A DNA stretch of 64,000 nucleotides. It comes from a bacterium (GTDB lineage: Bacteria; Patescibacteriota; Minisyncoccia; Minisyncoccales; GWA2-46-15). Below, piece after piece: positions 5,411-38,663 of the stretch (positions within the stretch are counted from its first letter, which is position 1; every line of letters begins with the position of its first letter). The notes beneath the pieces are model-generated. The model had not been told where the DNA came from, made no database searches, and saw only the letters and a program-made list of their open reading frames with translations. The stretch lies in the NCBI GenBank assembly GCA_030693425.1, contig JAUYAM010000002.1, positions 81,151 through 145,150 on the forward strand. The letters are read 5' to 3'. A program made the translations under genes and the position numbers.

Positions 5411-5440
5411 TCACTCTACTGCTACGTAGCAGTAGAGTGA
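5411..5440. repeat. perfect 30-bp palindrome, core CTGCTACGTAGCAG (family member 1)
   Basis: tcactctactgctac|gtagcagtagagtga. Lies between the acs stop (5445) and the ppsA start (5404). Confidence 0.9.
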
Positions 5441-5444
5441 GCGG

Positions 5445-7355
5445 TTAATTGGGTTTAACTTGAGCTTTGATTTTTTCTACGATTTCGGGATTGGCCAGGG
5501 TGGAAAGATCGCCCAACTCTTCGCCGATCAGAAGTTTCTTTAAGATTCTTCGCATAATCTTTCCCGAGCGGGTCTTGGGCAAATCTTCAACAATGTAAAT
5601 TTGTTTTGGCAGGGCGATCGGTCCGATCTCTTTTTTAATTTGGTCAATCACCGCTTGTTTTAATTCGTTTTCATTGGGATTTAACTTACCTTGGGTATCT
5701 GAGGTGCTGAAAAACGGGCCTTTTTCCCTGACGGCGAAAACAACAATCGCTTCTCCTTTTATCTCGTCGGGAACGCCGACGACAGCTGTCTCGCCTAAAA
5801 ATTCGTGTTTGTTGACAGCGTTTTCCAGTTCGCCAGTTGAAATCCGGTGGCCAGCCACTTTTAAAACATCGTCAACCCGGCCCAGGATTCTGACTAACCC
5901 TTCTTTGTTTTTGAAAGCCGCGTCAGAAGTAAAATAGGTTTTACCGCCATACTGCGACCAGTAAGTTTGACGGTATTTTTCGTCGTTGTTATAAATGCCG
6001 CGTAGCATGCCTGGAGGAAAAGGCGGCAGGATTACTAGATTGCCGGATTTTCCGGCCGGGCAAGATTGGCCTTGTTCGTCTAAAATGTCGGCTTTGACGC
6101 CGGGGAAAGGCAGTCCGGCAAAAGCGGGCTTAAAAGGGCCTATTCCGGGCAAGGAGCTGATCAAAATACCGCCGGTTTCTGTTTGCCACCAGGTGTCAAC
6201 GATTTCGCATTTGCTTTTGCCGACATTTTCAAAATACCACAGCCAGGCCGCTTCGTCGATCGGCTCTCCCACCGAACCCAAAAGGCGCAGGCTGGAAAGA
6301 TTTTCTTCCTTGATTTCTGCCTCGCCGTATTTTTGGAACATTCTGATGGCAGTGGGAGCGGTGTAAAAAATCGTGATTTTGTGTTTTTCAATGGTTTTTG
6401 CCCAGCGGTCAGGAGCGGGCCAGTCAGGCGCGCCCTCAAACATCAAAGTGGCGATGCCGTTGAGCAGAGGCGAGTAAACGCCGTAAGTATGGCCGGTCAC
6501 CCAACCTATATCGGCGGTGCACCAAAAAATATCATCATCTTTGAAATCGAAAATCCATTTGCCGGTAGCTTGAGCCTGGACCGCGTAGCCGCCGCAGGTG
6601 TGCAAAATTCCTTTGGGTTGGCCCGTCGAGCCGCTCGTATATAAGATAAAAAATGGGTCTTCGCTGTCCATTGTCTCTGGGGAGCATTCCGGCTTTTCTT
6701 TGGTTATAAGTTCATGCCACCAGAAATCGCGGTTTTCCTGCCAAGAAATCTCATTGCCCGCTCTTTTGACGAGAATCACTTTTTCAACTGAAGTTTCCCC
6801 GACGCCTTGGTCAGCCGCGGCTTTGAGATTGATGACTTGACCCCTTCTATAGTAGCCGTCGGCAGTAATCAGGATTTTGGCGCCGGTGTCTTGAATCCGG
6901 GCTTGCAGGGCAGTGGGCGAAAAGGCGGAAAAAACCACCGAATGGACAGCCCCGATTCTGGCGCAGGCGAGCATGGAAACAACGGTTTCCGGGATCATCG
7001 GCATATAGATCGCCACTCTATCCCCCTTTTTGACACCAAGCTTTTTTAAGGCATTGGCAAATTTACAAACTTCGGCAAAAAGCTGGCCGTAAGTAATTAG
7101 TTTTAGCTTTTCTTCAAGAGGTTCCGGTTCCCAGATCAGGGCGGTTTTGTCCCCCTTGTCTTTTAAATGCCGGTCAAGACAGGATTCGGTGATATTGAGC
7201 TTGCCGCCAATAAACCACTTAAAGTAGGGCGGCTCATGAACAAAAGCTTTTCCCCATTTTTTCTGCCAGGAGATTTCTGAAGCCAAATCCTCCCAGAACC
7301 CAATTGGGTCTTTGCTTGCCTTTTCGTATATTGGTTTGTCCTTTTTGATTTCCAT
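5445..7355 (-). CDS. acs: acetyl-CoA synthetase (AMP-forming)
   Basis: Motifs YTSGSTGQPKG, WWQTETGG and SGKIMRR. Start trimmed from 7460 to the internal Met (MEIKKDKPIYE). Confidence 0.9.
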   Translation of the reverse strand: MEIKKDKPIYEKASKDPIGFWEDLASEISWQKKWGKAFVHEPPYFKWFIGGKLNITESCLDRHLKDKGDKTALIWEPEPLEEKLKLITYGQLFAEVCKFANALKKLGVKKGDRVAIYMPMIPETVVSMLACARIGAVHSVVFSAFSPTALQARIQDTGAKILITADGYYRRGQVINLKAAADQGVGETSVEKVILVKRAGNEISWQENRDFWWHELITKEKPECSPETMDSEDPFFILYTSGSTGQPKGILHTCGGYAVQAQATGKWIFDFKDDDIFWCTADIGWVTGHTYGVYSPLLNGIATLMFEGAPDWPAPDRWAKTIEKHKITIFYTAPTAIRMFQKYGEAEIKEENLSSLRLLGSVGEPIDEAAWLWYFENVGKSKCEIVDTWWQTETGGILISSLPGIGPFKPAFAGLPFPGVKADILDEQGQSCPAGKSGNLVILPPFPPGMLRGIYNNDEKYRQTYWSQYGGKTYFTSDAAFKNKEGLVRILGRVDDVLKVAGHRISTGELENAVNKHEFLGETAVVGVPDEIKGEAIVVFAVREKGPFFSTSDTQGKLNPNENELKQAVIDQIKKEIGPIALPKQIYIVEDLPKTRSGKIMRRILKKLLIGEELGDLSTLANPEIVEKIKAQVKPN

Positions 7356-7477
7356 ATTTTCATTGTACCTTAAAAAGCGCCTCAAAGCACGTGAAAAAGC
7401 CGGCTGGACAAGATGCGGAAATTGTGAGAGATTGATATTGTTTAAATTTTTCAAAACCATAGGAAAGAGAGGATAGA

Positions 7478-7735
7478 ATGCTAATCATTAAGGCAAAGGA
7501 AGTCGACGCGAATGAGCGTCGCACCCTCGGGGATCAAAAGCTCTTATACACTGCTGAGGAAGGCTGGCTCGTTCTTTTTACTGGGCCGATCGCGGATAAG
7601 GATGAAGGTCCAGCCAAAGTAGCTGCTCGAAAACAGGTGGCTGCGAATTTCAATGTCAAGTTTGACGACATTGAAGCGGTGATTATTCCGTGGAATGCGG
7701 CGGTCATCTTGGTGAGAGGAGCAAAGAGGAGGTAG
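7478..7735 (+). CDS. hypothetical small protein (85 aa)
   Basis: ORF with a purine-rich stretch (gagagga) upstream and locally higher GC. No recognisable motif. Confidence 0.35.
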   Translation: MLIIKAKEVDANERRTLGDQKLLYTAEEGWLVLFTGPIADKDEGPAKVAARKQVAANFNVKFDDIEAVIIPWNAAVILVRGAKRR

Positions 7736-7751
7736 AATTCGTAAAGACCAA

Positions 7752-7775
7752 AAGATCGCCCCCGCGGGCGATCTT
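7752..7775. terminator. bidirectional hairpin between convergent genes
   Basis: aagatcgccc-ccgc-gggcgatctt, a 10-bp perfect stem. On the minus strand it is followed by uugguCUUU. Lies between ORF 7478..7735 and the gap stop. Confidence 0.5.
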
Positions 7776-7800
7776 AAGTTTCCGAAAAAGTTAGTTATTC

Positions 7801-8841
7801 TTAGAGTCTTTTAGCGACGAATTCCGTCAGTTCTACCAGCCGGCAGGAATAGCCCCATTCGTTGTCATACCAGGCCACCACCCTGACCAGGTTTTGATCT
7901 TTGACTTTGGGCAAATTTATGACTTCGGTCAAAGGCAGATCGACAATCGCGGAAAAAGTCGTGCCGATAATGTCACTGGATACCAGATTTTCTTCAGAAA
8001 CTTCGAGAATTCCCTTCAATTCGCCTTTTGCGGCTTTTTCGAAAACCTTATTAACTTCCTCGACGCTCGTTTCTCTTTTTATCTGGGCGACGATCTCTAG
8101 GACAGATCCGGCAAGAACCGGCACCCTAAAAGCAGATCCCGAGATTTTTCCTTCGAGTTCCGGCAGGACCCTGACAACGGCTTCGCCGGCTCCGGTTGAG
8201 GCCGGAATAATATTATTGAAAGCAGCTCGGCCTTCTCGCAGATCTTTCTTCGGAGCATCCACCAAGCTTTGGCTGGCAGTGACGGCGTGGATCGTCGTCA
8301 TCTGGGCTTTTTCAATCCCAAAATCTTTATCCAGAACCTTCATTACTGGTGCGGCGCAATTAGTAGTGCAGGAGCAATTGGCGATTATCTGGTGTTTTTT
8401 AGGATTGTAGAGTTTTTCGTTGACTCCTAAAACGACGGAAAGATCGGCGTCTTTTGAATTGGCGGAGATAATCACTTTTTTAGCTCCGGCCTCCAAATGT
8501 TTTTGGGCCTCTTTTCTGGCCGTGAATTTCCCGGTTGATTCGATGACAACCTGGACGCCGAGTTCTTCCCAGGGCAGGCTCAAGGGGTCAGTTTTATCTA
8601 AAACCAGGATAGATTTCCCGTTGATTGACAAGGCCCCGATCGCCCCCTTTATCCCCTTTCTCAAAGAGATTTCTTTTTTCCAGGTTCCGTAGACAGAATC
8701 GTGCTTTAAGAGATAAGCGATGTTGTCCAGGCTGGCGAGATCGTTGACAGCCGCCACCTCTAAATCCGGGTGATTTTCCAAAATCCGTCGCAACGTTAAT
8801 CGGCCTATTCTACCAAAACCATTAATAGCGATTTTTATCAT
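7801..8841 (-). CDS. gap: glyceraldehyde-3-phosphate dehydrogenase
   Basis: INGFGRIGR NAD-binding fold and the active-site motif SCTTNCAAP. Confidence 0.95.
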   Translation of the reverse strand: MIKIAINGFGRIGRLTLRRILENHPDLEVAAVNDLASLDNIAYLLKHDSVYGTWKKEISLRKGIKGAIGALSINGKSILVLDKTDPLSLPWEELGVQVVIESTGKFTARKEAQKHLEAGAKKVIISANSKDADLSVVLGVNEKLYNPKKHQIIANCSCTTNCAAPVMKVLDKDFGIEKAQMTTIHAVTASQSLVDAPKKDLREGRAAFNNIIPASTGAGEAVVRVLPELEGKISGSAFRVPVLAGSVLEIVAQIKRETSVEEVNKVFEKAAKGELKGILEVSEENLVSSDIIGTTFSAIVDLPLTEVINLPKVKDQNLVRVVAWYDNEWGYSCRLVELTEFVAKRL

Positions 8842-8862
8842 AGTTTTTTAGAGGCCAACTTG

Positions 8863-8891
8863 CCCCGTAGCGAACTTGTTCTGCTACGGGG
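8863..8891. repeat. hairpin CCCCGTAGC-N11-GCTACGGGG
   Basis: 9-bp stem sharing the GCTACG/CGTAGC core with the palindrome family. Intergenic between the glutaredoxin-like gene and gap. Confidence 0.6.
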
Positions 8892-8996
8892 TTCTTCCAA
8901 AACCGTTAATTGCTACTTTAGTCATAATAGTTATCAGCATTAATCAACATATTGCCCTGGCCACTGATTTATGCCGATTTCGCCGATTTATGCTGA

Positions 8997-9239
8997 TTAT
9001 TCTATGTTCAACAACTTACTTATTTTCTCTTTATCAAAGCCGACAATCCACTGATCGTCGATGTCGATGACCGGAACGCCGAACTGCCCGGTCTTTTTAA
9101 CCATTTCCTCAAGAGCTATTTCGTTTTGGGAAACGTCGATGTCTTCAAACTCAAAGCTCTTTTCTTTCAAGAATTCTTTTAAGGTGACGCAGTAAGGGCA
9201 GGTCGGGGTGCTAAATATCCTAATTTTAGGTTTTATCAT
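8997..9239 (-). CDS. glutaredoxin-like protein (NrdH/Grx family)
   Basis: 80 aa. CPYC redox motif near the N-terminus and a thioredoxin-fold pattern (GVPVIDID). Confidence 0.8.
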   Translation of the reverse strand: MIKPKIRIFSTPTCPYCVTLKEFLKEKSFEFEDIDVSQNEIALEEMVKKTGQFGVPVIDIDDQWIVGFDKEKISKLLNIE

Positions 9240-9256
9240 TTCTTCTAAATGATCTA

Positions 9257-10231
9257 TTACTCGCAGCTGCCGCCAGATCCAGAGCCGGCTCCTTCTCCAA
9301 AGCCCGAGGCAGGCACATCGTTAGAAAGCTGTTGGCCGCATTTTTCGGGCGGATTGACAAAGGCCTGGCAGACTATATTTTTGAAGGCTTCCGGAGACCT
9401 AAGGCTGACCTTGGCCTCTTTGCTGTTGATGATTACTGTCGGCGACCCGCCGACTCCGTATTCTTGGTTGAGGTCTTCGTGGACAGTGAATTTCGGGTAG
9501 CGGCCGCTCATCCAAGTATTCTTGTCGTTGTAAAGAGCGGTTATTTTGAATTCAGCGTCGGTTTTGGCAACGCAGTCTGAAAGTTTGCCTTGATCGACTT
9601 TGGCTTCCTGAATGCAGGTTTCGGCAGAGCCGTTTTTGACAAAACAACTCAAGTAATTTGCGAATTTTTCCTTGTTTTCGCTTTGAATGCAGTATTGTCT
9701 CAGGTTTTCGTCGATCTCTTTCTTTTCGTGCATGATGTAGTTGACAAAATAGATGCCGAAATCAGCTTTATCCTTCAATAATTCATAGACAGGCAAATAT
9801 GCCTTTTCCATTTGCAGGCCAAAAGGACAGTAAGACATGACAAAGACTTTGACATTAGGTTTTTCAGCTTTTGGCGGTTCTTGGTTCGAAGAAGGCGTCG
9901 GGCTGGCTTTGAGTTCATCCAGATTGAAAACTTGGGTAAAAAGGAGCTTGCCGTCTTTGCTAACGTAAACCTCGGGTTTATCCGGCCCTATTTCAAGAAC
10001 GAGCTTGTAAAGAGAGCTTTCGCTGGAAATCTTTGAAAGAGTGGCGGCTGTTCCCGGAGGCAGAAGGTTTGTATTGATGAACTTGAGAGCTTTTTCGGCT
10101 GTTTGCTGCCCTCTCGGATTCAGTAGCAGAGTTGGAAGGCTGATCTTGCCCAATTTTGCCTGCCAGAAAATAAAAAACCCTCCGGCAAGAACTAAGATGG
10201 CGATAGCTAGAATATAGTACTTTTGCTTCAT
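9257..10231 (-). CDS. membrane-anchored thioredoxin-fold (DsbA-like) protein
   Basis: N-terminal TM helix and a CPFG redox-type motif (VFVMSYCPFGLQ). Gly/Ser-rich C-terminus ending in Cys. Confidence 0.55.
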   Translation of the reverse strand: MKQKYYILAIAILVLAGGFFIFWQAKLGKISLPTLLLNPRGQQTAEKALKFINTNLLPPGTAATLSKISSESSLYKLVLEIGPDKPEVYVSKDGKLLFTQVFNLDELKASPTPSSNQEPPKAEKPNVKVFVMSYCPFGLQMEKAYLPVYELLKDKADFGIYFVNYIMHEKKEIDENLRQYCIQSENKEKFANYLSCFVKNGSAETCIQEAKVDQGKLSDCVAKTDAEFKITALYNDKNTWMSGRYPKFTVHEDLNQEYGVGGSPTVIINSKEAKVSLRSPEAFKNIVCQAFVNPPEKCGQQLSNDVPASGFGEGAGSGSGGSCE

Positions 10232-10258
10232 GTTTTAGCTTAATTAGTTTTAGGGTTG

Positions 10259-11470
10259 TTATCCTTCAGAAGTTAGATTTTTAACTAGGGGAAGAATTTT
10301 CAGGTTTTTGACTTGGCCGAGATTTCCCTTGAGACAGCCGGATTCTGTGAATTTGGCGCCTGGATTGTGTTTTTTCGGCAAGCCCCAGATTAAAAGCGGG
10401 ATCGGTCCTTTGGCGTGGGTCTTGGTTTGGCAGGAAGTGGCGTGGTCTGCAGTAATAACGAGCAGGGTATGCTTTAAATCTTTGAAAATTTTTAGTTCTT
10501 TGTCAACTTTTTCAATGAATTTTTTCTTGCCTAAAAAGTCACCGTTCTCGGCCAGGAGATCTGCGCCTTTGACGTGGCAGAAAACAAAGTCGTATTTTTT
10601 CAGGGCGTTTTTGGCGGCGTAAAACTTGTTTTTGAGATACGCCGAGGAAAAAGGATCCCCTTGCTTCTCTTTAATTATAGCCATTCCTAGGAATTTGGCT
10701 ATGCCTCGGTACAGCGCCCCCAAAGAAAGGCAGCCGGATTTCAGCCCCCACTTTTTTTGGAAACTTTCAACGTTTTTAAGTTTGCCCGCTCCTCTTAACA
10801 AGATGAAATTAGCCGGCATTTTTCCTTGCTTTTGCCTTTTCAAATTGAGAGGATGGTTTTCCAAAATCGGGTTTGCGGTTTTGAGAAACTCGTTGACAAC
10901 CCGGGCGGTAAAGCAAGCTTTGTCATTGTTTTTGCCCAGAGGCAGGCAGGGCCTGGTTTTCTTGATGAATTTTTCATCGGTGTCAGAAATTCTTTCTGAC
11001 AATCCCCTGCCTCGCAAAATCACGGCTAGGCGGTGGCCGTAGACCGGCTTGATTAAGAACTTCACTCCTTTAATTTTCAAGCCGTTCAGGGATTCAGCCA
11101 GAACTTTTGCTTCGCCGCTTTGTATCCGGCCGGCCCGGCGGTCAAGCACCAAACCGTTTTTATCAATGGTGGCAAGATTTCCCCGCAAAACAATGTCTTT
11201 GGGCAAAAGCTTGACGCCGCAGCCAATCGCTTCCAAAACGCCGCGGCCTGGCAGGAATTTTTTCGGGTCGTAGCCAAAAAGGGCAAAATGGACTTCTTCA
11301 GAATCAGGCAGTTTGCCTAAGAACAGAGGTTTGAAAAAAGCCAAAAGCCCGTTTCGGGCAAAACAATCAAGGTTTATTCGCCGCGCCGCTTCCAGCGGCG
11401 TCTTATTTCCCAGGGCCGGAATTTTATCGTCCGGCAGACCGTCAATCACCAAAAAGAGAATTTTTTTCAT
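10259..11470 (-). CDS. apgM: 2,3-bisphosphoglycerate-independent phosphoglycerate mutase, archaeal type
   Basis: 403 aa. N-terminal ILFLVIDGLPD and C-terminal ITADHATS metalloenzyme motifs typical of ApgM. Confidence 0.8.
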   Translation of the reverse strand: MKKILFLVIDGLPDDKIPALGNKTPLEAARRINLDCFARNGLLAFFKPLFLGKLPDSEEVHFALFGYDPKKFLPGRGVLEAIGCGVKLLPKDIVLRGNLATIDKNGLVLDRRAGRIQSGEAKVLAESLNGLKIKGVKFLIKPVYGHRLAVILRGRGLSERISDTDEKFIKKTRPCLPLGKNNDKACFTARVVNEFLKTANPILENHPLNLKRQKQGKMPANFILLRGAGKLKNVESFQKKWGLKSGCLSLGALYRGIAKFLGMAIIKEKQGDPFSSAYLKNKFYAAKNALKKYDFVFCHVKGADLLAENGDFLGKKKFIEKVDKELKIFKDLKHTLLVITADHATSCQTKTHAKGPIPLLIWGLPKKHNPGAKFTESGCLKGNLGQVKNLKILPLVKNLTSEG

Positions 11471-13083: not shown

Positions 13084-13127
13084 AAGATTAAAGTAATAAG
13101 TGTTCAGGAAGACTAATACGATTCTAA

Positions 13128-15191: not shown

Positions 15192-16688
15192 TCATTTCTT
15201 TACCCACCTTTGTTTAATTCCCAGTTTAAAATATTTTGGATCTTCAGCCGGCCAAAACTGCAAGCGCGGCAAGGCGCGTTTGCCGAGGAATTTATGGAGC
15301 TCGCGATATTCAGAATTCTTGAGTTGCAACTGTTCAACAATGACGCTAAGAGTCGCCTGCTTGATAGCCCGAGGCACGATGTCATTGCGGGATTTACGCA
15401 TTTCCAAATGAATCAGGAGATATTGATTTTGCTTGCTGTTAAACCGCGTTTCTAAGGTAAATTTCCCTGTTAAATAGGCGCTTAATGGCTTTTTAAGCAA
15501 CGCTTCCCGTATTGGCTCGGGATAAACCTGCAGGCCGTAGAGATTGGTAGAAAAGTCGGCTCGTTCGTAGACATAAACAAAAGGAAGTTCGTGCCAAAAT
15601 TTTTCTATCCCCGCCTTTTTTGCCTCCTTTTTCAAGTCTACTCCTAATTCGCTTAACTTCTTTGTAAGTTCCCGGAAAGAATAAACCCCGCCGTGATCTC
15701 CTAAAGCGTATCTTATGAGCGGCATCGTGTTGTTGCCGCTTACCAAGAGATCATCACCTTCGGCGTCAAACGAAATAAAAGAGGGTATGTATTGGCCTAA
15801 AGTCGGGGTCTTTTGAATTTTTTTGAAGATTGCTTCAAACAACTTTTGATTTTTGGCGCAAAGCCGGCGAATCAAAATTGCCAGGGGCGTCTCAAAAGCC
15901 ATGGCTCCGAGGTCGGCGGTGCCGTAAATATTCATCGTATCAATGAAAGAATTTCTCATATTAACCGCTCTGGAGACATATTCCCGGAAATCCTCGGTAA
16001 AAACTTCTGCTGCAAAAAGCAAGCGGACGCGGAATTTCCGCCAATCAATGCCGCGGGACGGCGCTTCGTCAATAATGTCTTTGATGAGCGGCGGATAACC
16101 GACTAAAATAATATTTTTGTATGATCTTCCAAGGTCCTTCAGCGACTTAAAGATTTCCTCTTTGTTAATGCCCGGGGTGATTAAAGAAACATTATAGCCC
16201 CTCTCCTGAAGCAAGTGGAATGCCTGATAAGTAATCAGGCCGCCGATCCAAACACCCATGCCGAAACAGACAATCACCAGTACTGGTTCTTCTTTTTCGT
16301 ACTGGCCCTGGAGATAAAATAATTCGTGGATAACCGAAGTTTGTAAATCTAAGTCGAAAGATCGATGAAAATAAAAAGGGGTACCGGTGGCTCCGGAAGT
16401 AGAGGTAAAAACAAGCGGTTTATCAATACGCCCGTCAATGGTCAATTCAGATAAAGGATATCTGCGCAGATAATTTTTCTTATCAATCGCCGGCAATAAC
16501 CGAAGATCAGCAACGGTTTTAATATTTTCTGGCTTAACTTTATTATTCCGTAAAAAATCCTGATAAGCAGGAACTTGTCCACTAAGCAAACGAAAGAGAT
16601 TTAAAACACTCTCGCCTCTAATTTTTTCCCAAAACAAACTCTCCCGCGTCTTAATTTGTTGAATAATCCGACTGGCTTTTGTCTTCAT
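15192..16688 (-). CDS. PaaK/CapK/F390-synthetase-like adenylate-forming enzyme
   Basis: 498 aa. TSTSGATGTPFYF (AMP-binding P-loop equivalent of SSGTTGKP) preceded by LPAIDKKNYLRRYP, typical of phenylacetate-CoA ligase-like proteins. Confidence 0.65.
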   Translation of the reverse strand: MKTKASRIIQQIKTRESLFWEKIRGESVLNLFRLLSGQVPAYQDFLRNNKVKPENIKTVADLRLLPAIDKKNYLRRYPLSELTIDGRIDKPLVFTSTSGATGTPFYFHRSFDLDLQTSVIHELFYLQGQYEKEEPVLVIVCFGMGVWIGGLITYQAFHLLQERGYNVSLITPGINKEEIFKSLKDLGRSYKNIILVGYPPLIKDIIDEAPSRGIDWRKFRVRLLFAAEVFTEDFREYVSRAVNMRNSFIDTMNIYGTADLGAMAFETPLAILIRRLCAKNQKLFEAIFKKIQKTPTLGQYIPSFISFDAEGDDLLVSGNNTMPLIRYALGDHGGVYSFRELTKKLSELGVDLKKEAKKAGIEKFWHELPFVYVYERADFSTNLYGLQVYPEPIREALLKKPLSAYLTGKFTLETRFNSKQNQYLLIHLEMRKSRNDIVPRAIKQATLSVIVEQLQLKNSEYRELHKFLGKRALPRLQFWPAEDPKYFKLGIKQRWVKK

Positions 16689-30039: not shown

Positions 30040-30093
30040 ATTGATTTATATTACCACCAAAAGTTTTGAAAATCAAAAGTGAGCCCTTGTCAG

Positions 30094-31098: not shown

Positions 31099-31249
31099 CT
31101 GCCACCTCCTGGGTGATTTTCGTAAAGGTCTGCTGACAAGACCTTATTGACAATGTTGCTAATTTATTTATAGCAGAAGTCGAGCAAAAAGAAAAGAGGC
31201 CTCAGCAACTATGTGTGAGGTCTCTTTTAGGTGAAGGGGCGCCGGTCAT

Positions 31250-31459
31250 CTATGCGCCGTGACCGCCTTGCATGACCGCCCTGATGCCGAGAATCGCGCC
31301 GGCAATGACTGCTCCGGCAAACGCCAGCCCTATAACTAGCGGGCTGATGTTCATTTCGGCGGTAACAGCACCGATGATCCCAATTGCTGCGACAGCAATT
31401 ACGATCAATCCTAACCCCCTAACCAAGGGCACTACGATCCAAATCCAAAACTCGTTCAT
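31250..31459 (-). CDS. small two-TM membrane protein (69 aa)
   Basis: Start trimmed to MNEFWIWIVVPL, with GGAG 6 nt upstream. Gly/Ala/Ile-rich TM helices. Confidence 0.55.
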   Translation of the reverse strand: MNEFWIWIVVPLVRGLGLIVIAVAAIGIIGAVTAEMNISPLVIGLAFAGAVIAGAILGIRAVMQGGHGA

Positions 31460-31585
31460 GGTAATCTCCTTTTCCTTTCCTTGGAATAGTTCGAATATGC
31501 TGATTTTTTCATAACACAAGTTAGTCGAAAAGAAAAGACCCGGCGCGCTTTGATGAGCGGCCGGGACTTTCTTCCGTGCGGCTGG

Positions 31586-31726
31586 CTAACATACCAGCGC
31601 GCACAGGGGCAAGGGCGGGAATTCATAATAGAATCGCAGCCAGATCATGCCGGCCGCGATCACCACGATCGCCAAGCCGAAGGCGATCGGCACCACCCTC
31701 GCCGGGAGGGAAAGTTTATTGACCAT
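31586..31726 (-). CDS. small membrane protein (46 aa), below the ORF-track threshold
   Basis: Hand translation: MVNKLSLPARVVPIAFGLAIVVIAAGMIWLRFYYEFPPLPLCALVC. AAGGAGG lies 6 nt upstream of the ATG. Confidence 0.45.
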   Translation of the reverse strand: MVNKLSLPARVVPIAFGLAIVVIAAGMIWLRFYYEFPPLPLCALVC

Positions 31727-31791
31727 CACGCACCTCCTTGTGCTATCTATATTAAATCAGAAAACGTTCAGAAGATCAATTAAAATTTAGT

Positions 31792-31863
31792 CATCGGCAG
31801 TTCAACGTAAAAAGCGGTGCCTTTGTTTTTTCCCGCTGATTCGGCGCGGATATCGCCGCCGTG
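31792..31863 (-). pseudogene. orphan 3' fragment of sensor histidine kinase (fragment D)
   Basis: Encodes HGGDIRAESAGKNKGTAFYVELP. About 5 mismatches over 72 nt to 27856-27927. Shares an exact cggcagttcaacgtaaaa with the 3' end of the kinase at 11467. Confidence 0.8.
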
Positions 31864-31960
31864 GCCAGAGATAAAATGTCCGAGGATAACGAATTTCATT
31901 ATTAGACAAATCTCCTTTAACTGCTTATTATTTTAGCACGATAGCTGGGGTTGCCAAGCC

Positions 31961-31989
31961 TTGACTTTCCCTACAGGGCGTGGTATAAT
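31961..31989 (+). promoter_or_regulatory. near-consensus sigma70-type promoter (TTGACT-17 nt-TATAAT, with TGn extended -10)
   Basis: ttgact ttccctacagggcgtgg tataat. Lies 79 nt upstream of the ATG at 32068. Confidence 0.6.
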
Positions 31990-32067
31990 TGAGGTGTTGT
32001 ACACTGTCAATCCCGCTGAGGCGTTATGCCGGAAGCGGGAAAAATATTCAGAAAAGGAGAAGTACAG

Positions 32068-32682
32068 ATGAATACGACGAATTTGCAACAAGCTTTGCAA
32101 GAGGCTCGGGAACGAGCCGAACAGGCCGAACGGGCTCGTGTCGAAGCCGAGACCCAAGCGAAGCTCTTCGGAGTTTTGGCCCGGGTAGCCCAGGCCGATG
32201 TCAAGGCCACTCAGGCCGTGGTCGATGTCAAAGAGACCGAGGCTACTTGGCGGAAAGCCGGCGAAAACGAGGCAATCGCCTCCGAGGCCAAAACCAAGGC
32301 CGAGGCCGGAAAGACCGAGGCCGAGAAGAAATTGGTCCAGGCCAAAGCTGACTTCAAGGTCGCCGAGGCCAGTGAGGTTCAGGCCAAGGATATTCTGGTT
32401 GCAGCCGCCAAGGTGGCTCAGGCCATGGCTATTGCCAAGGCCGATGCTGACAAGGATCTGGCCGTGGCCCGAGCAGAGCTGGAAAAAATCCAGCCTCTGG
32501 CCCCCGCCCCCGAGCCCACTCCAGTTCCCGTTCTCGACTCCGTTCCGGCCAAAGCCCATGTCGGATTTTGGGCCAAGTTGTTTGGGGGTCAATCAACCGT
32601 CAAATGCCCGAGCTGCGGGCAGATGACGCCTCAGGGGCCATTCTGCGTTAACTGCAGCGGGGCACTAGGAGGTGTTGCATGA
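32068..32682 (+). CDS. Ala/Glu/Lys-rich coiled-coil protein with C-terminal zinc ribbon
   Basis: Start trimmed to MNTTNLQQ, with a GGAG SD 8 nt upstream. C-terminal CPSCG...CVNC. About 60% GC. Confidence 0.65.
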   Translation: MNTTNLQQALQEARERAEQAERARVEAETQAKLFGVLARVAQADVKATQAVVDVKETEATWRKAGENEAIASEAKTKAEAGKTEAEKKLVQAKADFKVAEASEVQAKDILVAAAKVAQAMAIAKADADKDLAVARAELEKIQPLAPAPEPTPVPVLDSVPAKAHVGFWAKLFGGQSTVKCPSCGQMTPQGPFCVNCSGALGGVA

Positions 32683-33545
32683 CCTCCCTTACTTGCCCTG
32701 GCTGTGGCCAGCCGGTTCGGGTCGGCTGGAAGTTCTGCGGCAGTTGTCGCACTCCATTGTCCGCCCCGCCCGCCGCCGCTACCCCCGCCCAGCCTGCGCC
32801 TCAGGCCACGCCCCGGATCCCGTTTCGCGTGCGGATCCGGAAGAACTGGCCCCTGTGGGTGGGCCTGGCGGTCATCGGGTCGTGCTGCATGTGCGGGGCC
32901 CTGCTAGTCTCGGCCCTTTGGCTCGAGACGCTGAAATCCACTGTTCAAACAGTGGCTCAGCAGCAGGTCGAGCCGCCGGCATCGTATGTGCCGACGCAGG
33001 CCCCGGCCGTGGTCCCTCAACCTGATTCTGGGGCCCAGCCCCAGCCCGGGACATCTGATCCCGGGATCGCACCTCTCGCGCCCCTGTCGCTCCCGCCCGC
33101 CCTGTCCGGCCAATACCAGGTGGTGGATCCTGACGGAAATTACCTCGTCGGGACCATCACTTTCGCCGATGGGGCCGGCTGCTACGACGGGTGCGGGTCT
33201 TTCTCAGCGAATATCACGCCGAGAGAAGTCCAGGCCATGGACGACGGCACGATCGTCTTCCACTTCCAGATCGATTTTCTGGAGGTCAGCGGCAATCCAT
33301 ATTTCCGGCAGGAGTTCTTGAACGCCACAATGTATATCAACAACGTGGAGTTCAAGCCCACCGGCAGTTCTCTCCCAAGTCAGGTTACCCCGGAATTAGT
33401 GGGGAAACCACTGATGGGGTACCTGACATTCCCGGGACGGATTCTCGCGGTGGATCCAGCGAATTCACCGGAGTATAGTTTCCGGCTCGAGATTCCCCTT
33501 CTCAATCAGCCACTAGTAGGAGGGTGGCTGAAACCAAAGAGCTAG
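32679..33545 (+). CDS. zinc-ribbon / Pro-rich / single-TM protein with extracytoplasmic domain
   Basis: N-terminal CPGCG...CGSC, a Pro/Ala linker and the TM helix WPLWVGLAVIGSCCMCGALLVSALWL. ATGA overlap with the upstream gene. Confidence 0.65.
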   Translation: MTSLTCPGCGQPVRVGWKFCGSCRTPLSAPPAAATPAQPAPQATPRIPFRVRIRKNWPLWVGLAVIGSCCMCGALLVSALWLETLKSTVQTVAQQQVEPPASYVPTQAPAVVPQPDSGAQPQPGTSDPGIAPLAPLSLPPALSGQYQVVDPDGNYLVGTITFADGAGCYDGCGSFSANITPREVQAMDDGTIVFHFQIDFLEVSGNPYFRQEFLNATMYINNVEFKPTGSSLPSQVTPELVGKPLMGYLTFPGRILAVDPANSPEYSFRLEIPLLNQPLVGGWLKPKS

Positions 33546-33715
33546 GAAGGTAGCTCAAATGAGAAAAAAAGTGCCCAAAGTATATGCCCAAAGCGTATGC
33601 GGCGGGCACTTTTTCATTAGCATTTCGATCAGACAGTTCCTCTTTATTACAACGCCGCCGGGGCGCGTTGTGTTAAACTTCACTTCGTACAAGATCATTT
33701 CAAAAACAACCATAC

Positions 33716-33741
33716 AAAAAATCCACGATCGTGGATTTTTT
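33716..33741. terminator. bidirectional intrinsic terminator
   Basis: aaaaaatccac-gatc-gtggatttttt: a perfect stem flanked by an A-tract and a T-tract, between convergent genes. Confidence 0.75.
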
Positions 33742-33769
33742 GTAATCTTGGCATTTCATCTTCCGGTCT

Positions 33770-34045
33770 TTATTCAGTCGGCAGGTTGCCCGGCGGTTCG
33801 GGGTCTTTTGAGGCTAATAGCCGAGGTTCTTGGCCAGCCGGCAAAGAAACTGGCGCTGGCGTTGGTGCCTGGCTCACCTGCCTCTTTGCGAGCTCGGGTG
33901 TTTTCTCTGGTTTTGACTCCATGACAGGTTCAGCCTTTATTTTCGGCAAGCTGGGCTTAATAATTGGTTTTTGCTTTCTTTGGAAACGCTGAAAAGCAAA
34001 GATAGTCAGACAAACCGCCAGAAGGATTAAGAAAAAAAGTGTCAT
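33770..34045 (-). CDS. membrane-anchored Pro/Lys-rich hypothetical protein
   Basis: Start trimmed to MTLFFLILLAVCL (TM helix), followed by a low-complexity tail. Confidence 0.4.
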   Translation of the reverse strand: MTLFFLILLAVCLTIFAFQRFQRKQKPIIKPSLPKIKAEPVMESKPEKTPELAKRQVSQAPTPAPVSLPAGQEPRLLASKDPEPPGNLPTE

Positions 34046-34116
34046 GTTTTTTGTGAGTTGCTTAACCCGGTTAAGCAACAGACCCTTTATATTTTATCCG
34101 CGCACCAGTCCCGCTT

Positions 34117-35595
34117 TTAGCGGGACGGTGCGGGATTCCGCTCCACGCGTAAGCGTGGGAGGAATCCCGTAGCGGAGAAGATACCACGCGCTTGCGCGTG
34201 GAGCTTCATTTTCTTCTTTTCTGTTTTGCCTGTCAATAAAAGCGATAAGTTATAGATATCCCCTGCCCCCATGATAACCAGAACTTCGTTGCCTGTCAGG
34301 TTTTTCTTTAAGTAAGTGACAATTTTTCGGGCAGTCGGAATATAAAAGATCTTTGTATTTCGTATATCGTATTTTGTATCTAGTATTTGTTGGACGGCGA
34401 CGGCGAGCTTTTGAGAATCGACTTTCTTTTTAATAGCCTGGCTTTCGCGGCCAGCCACGCTGTAAATTGGCGCCAAAATGAGCTTATTAATAGGAGCCGC
34501 AGCCAAAACTTTGACAAAATCTTTGAACAAATAATATGTCCTTTGATATTGGTGAGGCTGGAAAACGCAAAAGATTTTCTTTTTCGGATATTTTTCCCTA
34601 ACAGCTTTAAGAGTGACTTCGATTTCTTTTGGGTGATGGGCGTAGTCGGAAATTAGTTTATAGTTTATAGTTTTTAGTTTAATAGTTCTTTCTTCAAAGC
34701 GGCGCCAGGCGCCGCGATATTCGCTTAACGCCTGAAAGCTGGTTTTGTCCGGGATTTTTAAGATTCTGGCAACTGAAAGGGCTGCCAAAGCATCAGCAAC
34801 TATATGTTCGCCAGGTATTTTCAGTATTTTTCTTAGTTTTTCTGCTTCTTTCAATTTTCTATCAAATAATACCGTGTTTTTCACGGCCGTGAAAAAGATG
34901 GTTTTCTCATTTATGTTTGTTACCAGCCAGCCATGTTTTGGCAAATGCCCGACGAATTTTCTGAAAGTCTTGATAATATTGCCTAAGGTTTTAAAGTAAT
35001 CCAAGTGGTCTTTATCAATCGTTGTCAGAACGATGATTTGGGGCCAGTAGTTCAAAAAAGAAGAGGCGTATTCATCGGCTTCGATGACGAGTATTTTGTA
35101 TTTAGTATTTAGTATCTTGTATCCGAATTTTTTCCCAAGGCGGAAGTTACTATCGCCGAATTCTTTTAGTTTTGTGCCGATGATCACGGTCGGGTCAAGG
35201 CCGGCCTTTATCAGGATCAAAGAAATCATCGCGGTGGTCGTGCCTTTGCCGTGAGTGCCGCAGACGGCAATGGTAAAGTATTGTTTAGTCAGCTTGCCAA
35301 GCGCTTCGGGATATGATTGGCGCTTAATCCTCCATTCCTTCGCCGCTTTTAACTCTGGGTTGTTTGGTTGAACCGCCGGGCTGTAAATCACCAAATCCGG
35401 CAACTGTTTAACCTCAGGGGTTAAACATTGGGGGTTGTGTTTGCCGATTCGAACTCTGGCTCCTAATTTTTCTAAGGCCTTGGTTATTTCAGACTCAGCC
35501 AAATCAGACCCTGAAACCTGGTGGCCTTGTGAAAGATAATATCTGGCTAGAGCTGAAACGCCGATGCCGCCAATGCCAATGAAGTGAACTCTCAT
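34117..35595 (-). CDS. murC: UDP-N-acetylmuramate--L-alanine ligase
   Basis: FIGIGGIGVSALA, GTHGKGTTT and EADEYASSF motifs. Carries three in-frame heptamer-array inserts and a ~35-aa C-terminal extension encoded by GC-rich hairpins. Confidence 0.9.
   Translation of the reverse strand: MRVHFIGIGGIGVSALARYYLSQGHQVSGSDLAESEITKALEKLGARVRIGKHNPQCLTPEVKQLPDLVIYSPAVQPNNPELKAAKEWRIKRQSYPEALGKLTKQYFTIAVCGTHGKGTTTAMISLILIKAGLDPTVIIGTKLKEFGDSNFRLGKKFGYKILNTKYKILVIEADEYASSFLNYWPQIIVLTTIDKDHLDYFKTLGNIIKTFRKFVGHLPKHGWLVTNINEKTIFFTAVKNTVLFDRKLKEAEKLRKILKIPGEHIVADALAALSVARILKIPDKTSFQALSEYRGAWRRFEERTIKLKTINYKLISDYAHHPKEIEVTLKAVREKYPKKKIFCVFQPHQYQRTYYLFKDFVKVLAAAPINKLILAPIYSVAGRESQAIKKKVDSQKLAVAVQQILDTKYDIRNTKIFYIPTARKIVTYLKKNLTGNEVLVIMGAGDIYNLSLLLTGKTEKKKMKLHAQARGIFSATGFLPRLRVERNPAPSR
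34354..34388. repeat. 5 x 7-nt tandem array, GTAT type, in frame in murC
   Basis: tgtattt cgtatat cgtattt tgtatct agtattt. Encodes DTKYDIRNTKI. Confidence 0.85.
34654..34688. repeat. about 5 x 7-nt tandem array, TAGTTTA type, in frame in murC
   Basis: tagttta tagttta tagtttt tagttta atagttc. Encodes KLKTINYKLIS. Confidence 0.8.
35090..35124. repeat. 5 x 7-nt tandem array, GTAT type, in frame in murC
   Basis: agtattt tgtattt agtattt agtatct tgtatcc. Encodes YKILNTKYKIL immediately before the conserved EADE motif. Confidence 0.85.
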
Positions 35596-35647
35596 AAAGC
35601 GGAAAGTTTAGAACTGGAGTTTTGACTTTTAAATTATGATTTTGCCC

Positions 35648-36244
35648 TTAGCTTGAGAGCGGACAGCTTTCAAGAATTGAATATTCCGGCCCTTCTTTTG
35701 CCAGCTCGCTTTCCATGACTTCAATTGATTCAACCGGGATTTTCAGAGAAATTTCCTTGTCGATTTCCGGAATTTCTTCCAATTCCATTTCCCGGAACTG
35801 CCATTGTTTGATTCTGGCCAGAGTGACGTGGGGAGAAAATTGATTGTCTTTGGAGTCTTTCACCACTTTTTCAAAAAGGGAGTTTTCTAAGTCCTGCCGA
35901 AGAGCAGAAAGCTCTTTGACTGCTTTTCCGCTCGCCCAGACCATACGCGGCAGCTTTCCTGCCCCGTGGAGGCCTTGCTTCTTTTCGGGATTCCCCGGCG
36001 GTCCGTAAGAGATCCTGTTCAGCTCAAAGACAAAAGGTTTGTGTATTGAGCAAGTTTTCCTGACGATTTCGCAGGTTTCCAGGAGTTCTTCGTCGCTGGC
36101 GTACCCTAAGAACAAGAGCGTTAAATGGAGGTTCTCCTTCTTTGTCCACCTGCAGGGCAGTTCCGGAAACTCGTCTCTGGTTCTGTTCAGGCTTTCCTTG
36201 ACGTCTTTTGGGAAGTTGACGGCGATAAAAATTCTGTGTCCCAT
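35648..36244 (-). CDS. thpR: RNA 2',3'-cyclic phosphodiesterase (2H phosphoesterase, LigT/ThpR)
   Basis: Two H-x-T-x motifs: HLTLLFLG and HVTLARI. Confidence 0.75.
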   Translation of the reverse strand: MGHRIFIAVNFPKDVKESLNRTRDEFPELPCRWTKKENLHLTLLFLGYASDEELLETCEIVRKTCSIHKPFVFELNRISYGPPGNPEKKQGLHGAGKLPRMVWASGKAVKELSALRQDLENSLFEKVVKDSKDNQFSPHVTLARIKQWQFREMELEEIPEIDKEISLKIPVESIEVMESELAKEGPEYSILESCPLSS

Positions 36245-36284
36245 ATTTTTGAATTATAGCAGAAAAAGCATTATAATTGAATAA

Positions 36285-37349
36285 ATGAGAGAAGCTTTAG
36301 TTTACGAAAAACTGAAAGAAGGTTTGGTCCGCTGTCAGGTTTGCCAGAGGCGGTGTTTGGTTGCAGAGGGCAAGACCGGCTTTTGCTTGACAAAGAGAAA
36401 TAAAGGCGGAAAACTAGTCAGCCTGAATTACGGCCTGATCCGAGGAGTCCAATTGGACCCGATTGAGAAAAAGCCTTTTTACCATTTCCGTCCGGGCGCC
36501 TGGGTTCCTTCGATCGGAAACTTTGGCTGCAATTTTAGGTGCAAGCAGTGCCTGAACTGGTGGTGCTCCTGGGGCGAGCCCGCCCAAATTTTGCTCCGCA
36601 AAATTCTGGCGGGTGAACCGGCTGAAATAATTAAACCAGAGCAGCTTATATCTGATTTTAAAAAAGCCGGTTACAAAAGTATTGCTTTCACTTACAACGA
36701 GCCGGTTGTCTGGGCAGAATACGTTTTAGACGCTTCAAAGCTGGCAAAACAGGAAGGTTTTTTTACCGTCTTTGTCACCAACGGCTCCTGGACTAAGGAA
36801 ACCTTAGATAAGATCGGCAAGTTCATTGACGCCGCCAACATCGATTTCAAAGGCTTTTCTGATAAGACTTACAGCAAAATGGGCGCTTTTTTCGGGCAGG
36901 TTCCCGAGATGGCAAAGTACGCCCAGGAAAAACACAAAATCTTTATTGAGATTACCACTCTCTTGATTCCTGGAATCAACGACGGCAAGGAAGAGTTGGA
37001 AGAAATGACAAGATGGATGGTAAAGCACTTGGGCCCAAAGACTCCCTGGCATCTAAGCCGTTTTGACCCGGATCTTGCTCCCGACAAAAGCTTTCAGGCC
37101 CTGCCCCAGACTTCGGTTAAAGATTTAGACAAGGCTGCGGCCATCGGCAAGAAGTCGGGATTGAAGTTTATCTATATCTGGGCGCCGGGTCAGAATTTAC
37201 CCGGAGGCCTCTATGCCCAGGGCAATACCTTTTGTCCGAAGTGCGGCCAGCTGGCGATAGAAAGAACTGCCTGGCAGCCAAAGCTGGTTGGCATAGACAA
37301 AAATGGCTGTTGCTCAAATTGCCAAGAGGATTTAAATGTTAAATTATAA
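36285..37349 (+). CDS. amrS: AmmeMemoRadiSam system radical SAM enzyme
   Basis: CNFRCKQC (CxxxCxxC) cluster motif, N-terminal CQVCQRRC and C-terminal CPKCG...CSNC. PFL-activase-like architecture. Confidence 0.75.
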   Translation: MREALVYEKLKEGLVRCQVCQRRCLVAEGKTGFCLTKRNKGGKLVSLNYGLIRGVQLDPIEKKPFYHFRPGAWVPSIGNFGCNFRCKQCLNWWCSWGEPAQILLRKILAGEPAEIIKPEQLISDFKKAGYKSIAFTYNEPVVWAEYVLDASKLAKQEGFFTVFVTNGSWTKETLDKIGKFIDAANIDFKGFSDKTYSKMGAFFGQVPEMAKYAQEKHKIFIEITTLLIPGINDGKEELEEMTRWMVKHLGPKTPWHLSRFDPDLAPDKSFQALPQTSVKDLDKAAAIGKKSGLKFIYIWAPGQNLPGGLYAQGNTFCPKCGQLAIERTAWQPKLVGIDKNGCCSNCQEDLNVKL

Positions 37350-37353
37350 TTCC

Positions 37354-37971
37354 ATGATTTCCTTCGCCTGTTTTTCGCCTCATCCGCCGCTTCTGCTTCC
37401 CTACATCGGCTCTATTGACGACAGGATTAAGGTCAAAAAGACGCTCCAGGCCCTAGAGTCTTTGGCGAAACAATTTAAGGAAGCTGAAATAGACGAGATT
37501 GTCATTTCCTCTCCTCATTCTGACTGGGGCTTTAACGTTCCCCTTTATTTTTTAGCCAACAACTTTAAAGGAAAGACTACTCCTTACTTGCTGGAATCGG
37601 AACCTCCGAGGTTTTATTTCAAAGAAGCAGAAAAACTGTATAGATCTAAGATTTCTAATTTAAAGTCTAAGGTTGCCTTAATTGCCTCCGGGGATACCTC
37701 CCATTGTTTGAAAAAAGACGGTCCCTACGGCCTTCATGCCGAAGGCCCAAAATTTGACAGAGACTTGATCAGCTATTTGAAAGAGAAAAACATTGAAAAG
37801 ATCTTAAGTCTAGCTGAGATTTATCCCAATGCCGCAGAATGCGGCTTGAGATCTTTTTCCTTTATCCTGGGCATTCTTGAAGCCTCTGGGATAGACTGGC
37901 AATCGGAGATCTTGTCCTACGAGGGTCCTTTGGGAGTCGGCTACCTCGTCGCCAATTTTAAACTTAATTGA
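37354..37971 (+). CDS. LigB-fold (class III extradiol dioxygenase B-like / Memo-related) protein, probable partner of AMMECR1
   Basis: ACFSPHPPLLLP, ISSPHSD, ASGDTSHCL and AAECGLRS motifs typical of the LigB-like domains found with AMMECR1. Start trimmed to MISFACF. Confidence 0.6.
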   Translation: MISFACFSPHPPLLLPYIGSIDDRIKVKKTLQALESLAKQFKEAEIDEIVISSPHSDWGFNVPLYFLANNFKGKTTPYLLESEPPRFYFKEAEKLYRSKISNLKSKVALIASGDTSHCLKKDGPYGLHAEGPKFDRDLISYLKEKNIEKILSLAEIYPNAAECGLRSFSFILGILEASGIDWQSEILSYEGPLGVGYLVANFKLN

Positions 37972-38018
37972 AGAAAAGAAGCCGTTTTGTCAAATCAAAA
38001 AGACTGCCATTTAATTTT

Positions 38019-38050
38019 CTCACTTCACTGCTACGTAGCAGTGAAGTGAG
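38019..38050. repeat. perfect 32-bp palindrome, core CTGCTACGTAGCAG (family member 2)
   Basis: ctcacttcactgctac|gtagcagtgaagtgag, 48 nt after the stop at 37971. Confidence 0.9.
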
Positions 38051-38111
38051 GATTGTGTCATTATAATTTTAGGACGATATTAAATTAGGTTTAAAAGTAA
38101 AATAGAAAACT

Positions 38112-38630
38112 ATGGCTAGATATTCGCAAATTACTAATCAAGAAAAACAAGAATTACTTAGCGATTTCTGCGAAGCCTTAGCAGTTTTAAAAACTGCCGA
38201 CGAGGCAATGAAATTTCTTACCGATCTGCTAGGGCGTCAGGAAATTATCGCTTTGGCAAAAAGAATAAAAATCGCTAAACTTCTCTTAGCCAGCAAAGAT
38301 TACCGCGAAATAGCGCGCCTTCTAAAAGTGAGCCATGCTACGATTGCCAAGGTGAGCCAGTGGTTGATGGAGTCGGGTGAGGGCTTTAAGCTGGTGGCGG
38401 AGAGGACAAAAGACAAGAAACGCAAGCAAATTACCGGTTCTGCCGAATTGAGAAAGATAGAGTGGGATAATTTTAAAAAGGGTCATCCTCTGATGTTCTG
38501 GCCTGAGTTATTGATCAAGGATGTTATTAAAACAATGGATAGAAAACAAAAAGATAAAATAAAAGCGGCGTTGGCTAAAATTGATTATAAATCAAGCCTG
38601 TATAGGCGGATTAATCGTTTGCTGAAATAG
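38112..38630 (+). CDS. TrpR-like YerC/YecD-family DNA-binding protein with C-terminal extension
   Basis: The N-terminal ~100 aa (FLTDLLGRQEIIALAKRIKIAKLL...YREIARLLKVSHATIAKVS) matches the TrpR-related HTH pattern. Confidence 0.6.
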   Translation: MARYSQITNQEKQELLSDFCEALAVLKTADEAMKFLTDLLGRQEIIALAKRIKIAKLLLASKDYREIARLLKVSHATIAKVSQWLMESGEGFKLVAERTKDKKRKQITGSAELRKIEWDNFKKGHPLMFWPELLIKDVIKTMDRKQKDKIKAALAKIDYKSSLYRRINRLLK

Positions 38631-38633
38631 TCG

Positions 38634-38663
38634 TCAGTATACTGCTACGTAGCAGTATACTGA
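38634..38663. repeat. perfect 30-bp palindrome, core CTGCTACGTAGCAG (family member 3)
   Basis: tcagtatactgctac|gtagcagtatactga, 4 nt after the stop at 38630. Confidence 0.9.

Follow-up and report, generated by a model that had tools for sequence, protein, structure and literature searches.

The question raised by this locus is why three long palindromes with a common core stand close to genes on the same chromosome, two of them on either side of a gene encoding a TrpR-like protein. The locus lies within 64,000 nucleotides of a patescibacterial genome (contig JAUYAM010000002.1, positions 81,151 to 145,150 of the forward strand), hereafter the window, which is unremarkable chromosomal DNA from a Parcubacteria-like candidate-phyla-radiation genome, with ppsA homologs labelled Nealsonbacteria and Wildermuthbacteria as the nearest. 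To our knowledge, how candidate-phyla-radiation bacteria regulate their genes has hardly been explored, and such organisms are not growable alone. The reading that we favor, to which we assign a probability of about 0.5, is that the palindromes would be the cognate DNA sites of the protein that they bracket, a long form of YerC/YecD, and that the gene and its two sites would constitute an autoregulated unit with a REPtron-like layout and a few dispersed solo copies.

An exhaustive hairpin scan of the window returned the three elements as perfect palindromes without a spacer, the arms measuring 15, 16, and 15 nt. They are designated here according to their position: U is the palindrome upstream of the start of the TrpR-like gene, D is that after its stop, and a copy elsewhere is a solo (none is assigned to a strand, and a slash marks the dyad). 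The solo palindrome (copy 1; 5411..5440, TCACTCTACTGCTAC/GTAGCAGTAGAGTGA) is located 4 nt past the stop codon of acs (acetyl-CoA synthetase; 5445..7460, - strand) and 6 nt ahead of the ATG of ppsA (phosphoenolpyruvate synthase; 2906..5404, - strand), which is directly downstream and represents a candidate regulated target. The U palindrome (copy 2; 38019..38050, CTCACTTCACTGCTAC/GTAGCAGTGAAGTGAG) lies 47 nt past the stop of a Memo/LigB-like gene and 61 nt ahead of the ATG of the TrpR-like (YerC/YecD) gene (38112..38630, + strand), the 172-aa product of which is the proposed palindrome-binding partner. The D palindrome (copy 3; 38634..38663, TCAGTATACTGCTAC/GTAGCAGTATACTGA) follows the stop codon of the same gene after 3 nt, and its pairing extends to 38631-38666 with one G.T. 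The closeness to stop codons had been pointed out in an earlier, sequence-only reading of this DNA and is upheld, with the distances given above replacing those that it quoted.

The 14-mer CTGCTACGTAGCAG was found at 5419, 38028, and 38642 only, with no more copies at up to 2 mismatches in the 64-kb window; 0.07 copies are expected in the shuffled window, and 3 copies were reached in 0 of 100 shuffles. The block that is identical in all three copies is 16 nt long (ACTGCTACGTAGCAGT) and has no other window match at up to 3 mismatches. The motif search, the hairpin scan, and the shuffles together bear out the claim of three perfect palindromes with a common core. All copies have the form TCA-N4-ACTGCTAC/GTAGCAGT-N4'-TGA, in which N4 is CTCT, CTTC, or GTAT (just 3 of its positions vary) and N4' is its exact complement. 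The outer arms had been described as varying self-complementarily and as differing in length; the first description stands, while the second gives way to one shared form, in which copy 2 merely pairs one base further. RNA folding of the three copies yielded -21.4, -26.0, and -24.6 kcal/mol (z-scores of -5.7 to -8.7). A terminator scan of both strands detected no T-run or T-tract after any of them, which confirms the reported absence of a U-tract, and an Rfam scan of the window at gathering thresholds returned tRNA-Gln only, with no family matching the palindromes. The hairpin at 8865..8893 (CCCCGTAGC-(11 nt)-GCTACGGGG; no strand assigned), which had been quoted at 8863-8891 as a relative, is outside the family: its arms are in the opposite order, and it was missed by both the mismatch search and the family covariance model. 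Since the type A arm CAGTATACTG is a mini-palindrome, we also considered the 30-mer as a zero-spacer tail-to-tail dimer of GTAG-tagged mini-REPs (repetitive extragenic palindromes), which was rejected because the other arm types, CAGTGAAGTG and CAGTAGAGTG, are not palindromic.

The evidence that carries the favored reading comes from relatives, which were gathered as contigs encoding homologs of the TrpR-like protein (protein identity from 87% down to 54%) and represent ten lineages (the window, L034, L005/6, L011-16, L017, L018-20, L021/22, L026/27, L023-25, and L028/29). The orthologous gene is flanked by U and D copies of one palindrome in 10/10 lineages, with U 8-69 nt ahead of the start and D 0-12 nt past the stop. 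Equivalents of the U site occur upstream of the ortholog in lineages including L034, L005, L011, L017, L018, L021, and L026, and a D site is present after the stop of every ortholog examined. The centers of U and D are approximately 560-625 nt apart and the conserved unit measures approximately 600-650 bp; the exception in spacing is L018, in which U and D are 408 nt apart, yet D is still 12 nt past the stop. This unit occupies three contexts, namely, between LigT and fmt-efp (window, L034, L005, L011, L017, and L018), directly after ppsA and ahead of the class V fructose-bisphosphatase gene fbp (L026/L027), and, within the S10 ribosomal operon, between rplC and rplD (genes at L021 10001-10516, L023 10001-10519, and L028 10001-10519). 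The gene and its two palindromes are a unit that is kept intact in every lineage examined, whatever its neighbors. The presence of the TrpR-like gene within the S10 operon in three lineages is in itself an unusual break in a highly conserved operon.

The sequence-only reading had correctly stated that two copies flank the TrpR-like gene at 38112-38630 (PF01371). It had also described this gene as interrupting the AmmeMemoRadiSam cluster, which is only partly apt: the order LigT, TrpR-like gene, fmt-efp is stable across relatives, and the neighbors, including the AmmeMemoRadiSam genes, come and go.

Regarding the protein, the 172-aa product matched Pfam PF01371 (E 7.8e-16) and NCBIfam TIGR02531 (50.9 bits, cutoff 42.2), its relatives in the PDB are 3frw/3g1c/3kor (E 1e-16 to 1e-19), and an AlphaFold2 (AF2) model superposed on 3frw with a TM of 0.88-0.90 and a root-mean-square deviation of 1.3 Å. 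The protein encoded at 38112-38630 is a long-form YerC/YecD with a TrpR-fold helix-turn-helix. It carries a conserved all-helical C-terminal extension of approximately 70 aa (about residues 105-172), for which no Pfam match was obtained even at E up to 10 and no structural match was found beyond the TrpR domain, and there is no catalytic domain or motif in the protein. The long-form family comprises approximately 91 clusters (50% identity) at E <= 1e-30, with no homologs among phage and plasmid sequences, and a literature search found no description of it. Within lineages, the gene occurs in a single copy and its synteny is stable. The L018 protein (10001-10342) is only 113 aa long and has lost the C-terminal extension.

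Sequence conservation among the sites is concentrated at defined positions: in 17 distinct sites (34 arms), counted from the dyad, positions 2, 3, 5, and 11 never vary and positions 4, 6, and 13 hardly do. The center TGCTAC/GTAGCA is common to eight lineages and is replaced, in the same register, by TGCTCT/AGAGCA in L028 and TGCTTT/AACGCA in L023, in each of which the U and D copies share 84-86% identity over 32-50 nt. The palindrome center co-varies with the opening residues of the recognition helix, namely, (S/G)-H with TAC/GTA (in seven lineages), G-Q with TCT/AGA (protein P0019), and G-T-P with TTT/AAC (protein P0034). The conserved positions are kept in weak hairpins, such as L005 U (-9.7 kcal/mol), L021 U (-6.6 kcal/mol), and L002 (-10 kcal/mol), as compared with -21 to -26 kcal/mol in the window. 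Because the core is kept in decayed hairpins and the center tracks the protein, we argue for sequence-specific recognition by the bracketed protein. The sequence-only reading had listed an ACGT-centered protein-binding site, with the local TrpR-like protein as a candidate, among several possible roles, and this role is now favored by linkage in 10/10 lineages and the co-variation of the center.

This interpretation has a precedent in the TrpR family. YerC is HisR, proteins of the TrpR family bind 20-bp palindromes, and about half of the hisR genes have a site of their own upstream (PMC9413887); regulators of the TrpR family that have a palindromic operator ahead of their own gene are already known. 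The present sites resemble the HisR/TrpR operators in that they adjoin a bona fide YerC/YecD protein, are dyad-symmetric, include a copy upstream of the regulator's gene, and carry a lineage-specific motif that co-varies with the protein. The outer block A13-S12-T11-N10-Y9-A8 also resembles the HisR half-site cacTTTA, a resemblance only, and the palindromes of L028 and L023 carry ACTTT at that register. They differ in being 30-34 bp long and often perfect rather than 20 bp, in the extra invariant core TGCTAC/GTAGCA, in outer half-sites that are 14 bp rather than 6 bp apart, in a second copy that always follows the stop codon, in the approximately 70-aa extension of the protein, in the absence of a link to histidine or tryptophan genes, and in insertion-like solo copies. 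The new aspects are, therefore, a perfect palindrome of 30-34 bp with an extra invariant core, an obligatory second copy after the stop codon, a bracketed unit that is conserved from one context to another, the S10 operon among them, and the insertion-like origin of the solo copies.

In the mechanism that we propose, a dimer, or a dimer of dimers, of the TrpR-like protein would bind the duplex palindrome and read T6-G5-C4-T3-A2 on each side of the dyad together with the outer A13, T11, and A8 approximately one helical turn further. The occupancy of U and D would autoregulate and insulate the gene, by occluding a promoter at U and by acting as a roadblock or joining U and D in a loop, and a solo site between co-directional genes, such as acs and ppsA, would place downstream read-through under the same control. 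A link to ppsA and gluconeogenesis is hinted at by the regulator gene of L026, which abuts ppsA/fbp, and by the window solo site upstream of ppsA. If so, a conserved protein family, a precisely defined site, and a plausible target in ppsA represent a candidate regulator-operator pair that is directly testable, with natural specificity variants on offer in the TAC/GTA, TCT/AGA, and TTT/AAC centers. A parallel may be found in the same window, in which a PaaX-like regulator gene (60911-61477) is likewise preceded, 33 nt upstream, by a perfect 28-bp palindrome (60851-60878; 14+14, TCCTGTGCAAGCAT/ATGCTTGCACAGGA) that lies within a longer quasi-palindrome, with TATAAT just after it and a second palindrome (60794-60825; ATCGATTAGATTAA-TCGG-TTAGTCTAATCGAT) just upstream. 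The palindrome at 60851-60878 is probably the PaaX-like regulator's own operator, and we counted it, by analogy, in favor of binding sites in the TrpR-like case.

The symmetry of the arms requires separate consideration. At the variable positions 7-12, 85/102 cells are Watson-Crick matched within sites, as compared with 60.9 +/- 5.1 for shuffled arms, and 85 was reached in 0/20,000 shuffles. In a 19-site alignment, 91.9% of cells pair, changes occur on both sides in 7/13 pairs, and the covariation score is 0.341, versus 0.167 when shuffled and at most 0.134 for slid registers. The preference of a single protein cannot explain this symmetry because the three sites of the window differ in N4 and each is perfectly symmetric. 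It could result from selection on an intrastrand hairpin, either as RNA after stop codons or as extruded DNA, or from the homogenization of quasi-palindromes by template switching during replication, a documented process (PMC7202029). A hint toward homogenization is provided by ppsA itself, which contains a perfect 31-nt palindrome in the window (3956-3986; 15+1+15, TAGCTTCCGGAGATC-G-GATCTCCGGAAGCTA) at a conserved segment (residues ~474-483, FSFRRSDLRKL) where the L030 ortholog has only a quasi-palindrome; this palindrome is not an insertion.

Sequence comparison suggests, in turn, that insertion has carried solo copies to new places. In relatives L030/L031 and L032/L033, the PpsA proteins of which are 71-74% identical, the acs-ppsA overlap is 8 or 4 nt and the palindrome is absent, and, thus, the approximately 40-nt spacer at 5405-5444 is an insertion relative to them. 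L006 has a degenerate copy with three C-to-T changes (15677-15706) inside a GtrA-family gene (gtrA; 15470-16090, - strand), which coincides with a 36-nt, 12-codon in-frame insertion (QPLTSLLHNNEV) translated as a 12-aa loop of the membrane protein, and this insertion is missing from the orthologs in the window (55087-55665) and L018. It consists of ATTTT, the palindrome, and G, and it has the flanks TTTT-n-TCAC...GTGA-G in common with the window U and solo copies. The TAG at the palindrome center provides the stop codon of def in L002, a metagenome-assembled genome labelled Saccharibacteria in which pcm starts 20 nt later, and that of ppsA in L026. No target-site duplication was definable. Members of the family are rare: the window holds 3 in 64 kb, of which 2 are the gene-flanking pair, and the family covariance model detected no copy beyond the known sites in 268 kb (window and related loci). 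A pattern suited to locating the family in genomes is TCANNNNAYTGCTACGTAGCARTNNNNTGA. In scans of public collections for the palindrome, GTDB genomes yielded one real extra site, that of L002, and viral contigs yielded 0 matches; two JGI metagenome matches look like chance, one being inside a high-GC coding region and the other a different repeat. This low, regulon-like copy number was counted in favor of binding sites.

Several observations weigh against the reading as cognate sites of the TrpR-like protein. The D site, directly after the regulator's own stop, is in an atypical position for an operator, and the outer blocks are further apart than in HisR operators, as described above. The distance from U to the ATG is not constant, the center-to-ATG interval ranging from approximately 23 to 78 nt, on the basis of which constant promoter geometry for the U site was rejected. 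Promoter-like sequences (TTGCTA-17/18-TATAAT or TATATT) with the -35 element inside the palindrome occur in L011 and L017 but no promoter overlap was found at the U sites of the window and L034, and, thus, occlusion of the gene's own promoter is not the whole story. The symmetry of variable arm positions that differ between sites of one genome is not predicted by a plain operator model, regulons normally grow by means other than insertion-like copies of the kind at acs/ppsA and in gtrA of L006, and the support from co-variation comprises three center types only, with the putative binding resting on this and on linkage.

The insertion-like copies suggest that the palindrome may instead be a selfish mobile element similar to REPs or miniature inverted-repeat transposable elements (MITEs), mobilized in trans, with the TrpR-like gene and its two copies as a REPtron-like master unit and the protein serving the element as an end-binding protein or a domesticated transposase DNA-binding domain; we consider this doubtful. 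A gene bracketed by two copies reproduces the layout of a REP, a REP-associated tyrosine transposase (RAYT), and a REP (PMC3733652), and the whole unit, both palindromes included, has relocated among at least three genomic contexts. The in-frame insert in gtrA with flanks similar to those of the window copies, the absence of the window solo copy from relatives with overlapping acs/ppsA, and the provision of an upstream stop codon by the central TAG in L002 def and L026 ppsA also conform to mobility, as do weak, sub-threshold matches of the protein to the N-terminal DNA-binding regions of IS630/IS1/IS21 transposases. However, these matches reach 16-20 bits against cutoffs of 100-160 and are ordinary helix-turn-helix cross-matches, the protein has no catalytic domain or motif, and no transposase, integrase, recombinase, or RAYT was detected among the approximately 55 open reading frames scanned in the window. 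The stability and single copy of the gene within lineages, its lack of phage or plasmid homologs, the very low copy number of the palindrome, and the lack of a definable target-site duplication also argue against a selfish element. If the palindromes do spread as units, they would represent a family of binding sites dispersing without an associated transposase, which bears on regulatory rewiring in small genomes.

A comparison with known repeats delimits how far the resemblance extends. Similar to REPtrons, the present system has palindromes of 20-40 bp, a single-copy gene bracketed by its repeat, GTAG in the sequence, and solo copies that are mostly extragenic, just downstream of genes, and occasionally intragenic. 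It differs in its partner, a TrpR-fold helix-turn-helix protein without a catalytic motif rather than a RAYT (Y1/HUH, IS200/IS605-like transposase), in the location of GTAG at the dyad, where it is paired with CTAC between the ends TCA...TGA, as opposed to the unpaired GTAG or CGTC tag of REPs, and in the few copies per 100 kb counted in the window and related loci. REPs are reported to exceed 100 per genome as a rule (PMC2817692), and families of 20-100 units or fewer have also been described (PMC3733652). Membership in the classical REPs was rejected because three defining features fail, namely, copy number, the unpaired GTAG foot, and the RAYT partner; of the REP-like role that the sequence-only reading had proposed, the analogy in layout and inserted-looking solo copies survives and the membership does not. 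A REPtron-like system of a new type, in which a non-catalytic TrpR-fold helix-turn-helix partner takes the place of an HUH transposase, the palindrome is copyable, the unit relocates, and an extruded hairpin or cruciform is recognized, strikes us as rather unlikely; hairpin or cruciform recognition would explain the conservation of the core in sequence together with that of the arms in pairing only. Palindromic inserts in coding sequences also have a counterpart in the Rickettsia palindromic elements, which are in-frame palindromic repeat insertions of approximately 100-150 bp in protein-coding genes. The insert in gtrA of L006 resembles these elements and intragenic REPs in being palindromic, in frame, and the source of a loop peptide, and differs in its length of 36 nt and in being one case.

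The pairing of the arms may alternatively reflect hairpins that function as RNA only, as 3'-end protectors, as RNase III-type sites at which the TrpR-like mRNA is cut out of polycistronic RNA, or as modulators of the translational coupling between acs and ppsA (stop, hairpin, AUG), none of which needs the TrpR-like protein; RNA stability elements had also been among the roles listed in the sequence-only reading. The hairpins are very stable and show compensatory changes within sites, nearly all sites lie between co-directional genes, with D 0-12 nt past the stop, and for REPs near stop codons an action on the RNA is known (PMC3733652). Most transition mismatches read as G.U on the sense strand (14, versus 5 A.C; one-sided p about 0.03); as a test of RNA hairpins this orientation is suggestive only since the bias is weak, its cases are non-independent (five are at position 7), and strand-biased C-to-T mutation or deamination gives the same result. 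We nevertheless regard a function as RNA only as quite improbable: the retention of the core and T11/A13 in sites with a decayed stem (L005 U, L021 U, and L002) is not predicted by pure selection on structure, U and D share their sequence and change it together with the protein lineage, L018 U stands between divergent genes, the asymmetric flanks do not keep one orientation with respect to transcription, and Rfam gave no match.

Hybrid sites with arms of two types (L002, TCACTCT/ATACTGA; L021 U; and L005 U) raise the much slighter possibility of site-specific recombination sites of the att, attC, or dif type, with the TrpR-like gene as an excisable cassette and the solo copies as empty or scar sites of U x D recombination. 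L002 looks like a U-type left arm joined to a D-type right arm, as a U x D deletion would leave, and the gene content just past D varies (ATL, HhH-GPD, MBOAT+DUF459, and NUDIX). The palindromes resemble integron attC and Xer dif sites in bracketing a single gene, in their hybrid arms, and in the variable gene content alongside; in contrast to those systems, no tyrosine recombinase is encoded in the window, conservation is central rather than terminal, and the unit is evolutionarily stable. A recombinase of any kind is lacking in or near the unit and elsewhere in the window, most sites are symmetric, unlike the products of a crossover at the center of unlike sites, the unit has been stable over a long divergence, and the in-frame gtrA copy is ill-suited as the scar of a 600-bp cassette; we find this explanation very improbable.

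The least credible explanation is that of factor-dependent or I-shaped terminators without a U-tract, the factor-dependent kind of which had been among the roles listed earlier and which the strong hairpins shortly past stop codons invite, because there is no T-tract, copy 1 leaves no room for a new promoter in the 6 nt ahead of the ppsA ATG, a shared protein-lineage-specific sequence is unnecessary for termination, L018 U is in a divergent intergenic region, strong termination by the pair that, in three lineages, surrounds a gene within the S10 operon would cut off the downstream ribosomal genes, and the same genome has canonical A/T-flanked GC hairpins. An example of the latter is the hairpin at 41818-41850 (CAAAAACGTCCCGCTT-C-AAGCGGGACGTTTTTG), located after efp, between the convergent efp and bPH_2 genes, which looks like a canonical bidirectional terminator; therefore, this genome does use A/T-flanked terminators.

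Besides the palindromes, the genes beside the TrpR-like unit vary among close relatives and include those for an ATL/MGMT-like DNA-binding protein, an HhH-GPD glycosylase, a NUDIX protein, and MBOAT+DUF459 (window 38682-39029; L005 10571-11520; L017 2141-2617 and 3285-5673; L034 103-579), which points to a local hotspot of gene turnover. In the window, the ATL/MGMT-like gene (38682 or 38718 to 39029) is located after the D palindrome. Genes for PF05635, the 23S rRNA intervening-sequence protein, were also observed in relatives (L021 4947-5210, L006 15065-15424, and L018 16354-16725), one of them between rpsG and fusA.

A second palindrome family, TTGYKYTWRGC-n-GCYWARMRCAA (e.g., GTTGCTTAACC-C-GGTTAAGCAAC), is present in the window (34057-34079) and related loci (L018 14618-14640 and 20160-20180; L005 7227-7251; L011 424-448; and L002 4543-4567), with two copies inside a Mur-ligase gene, approximately 180 nt from the gene start. 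Other long perfect hairpins in the window are located at 33713-33744, 43609-43639, and 52471-52500.

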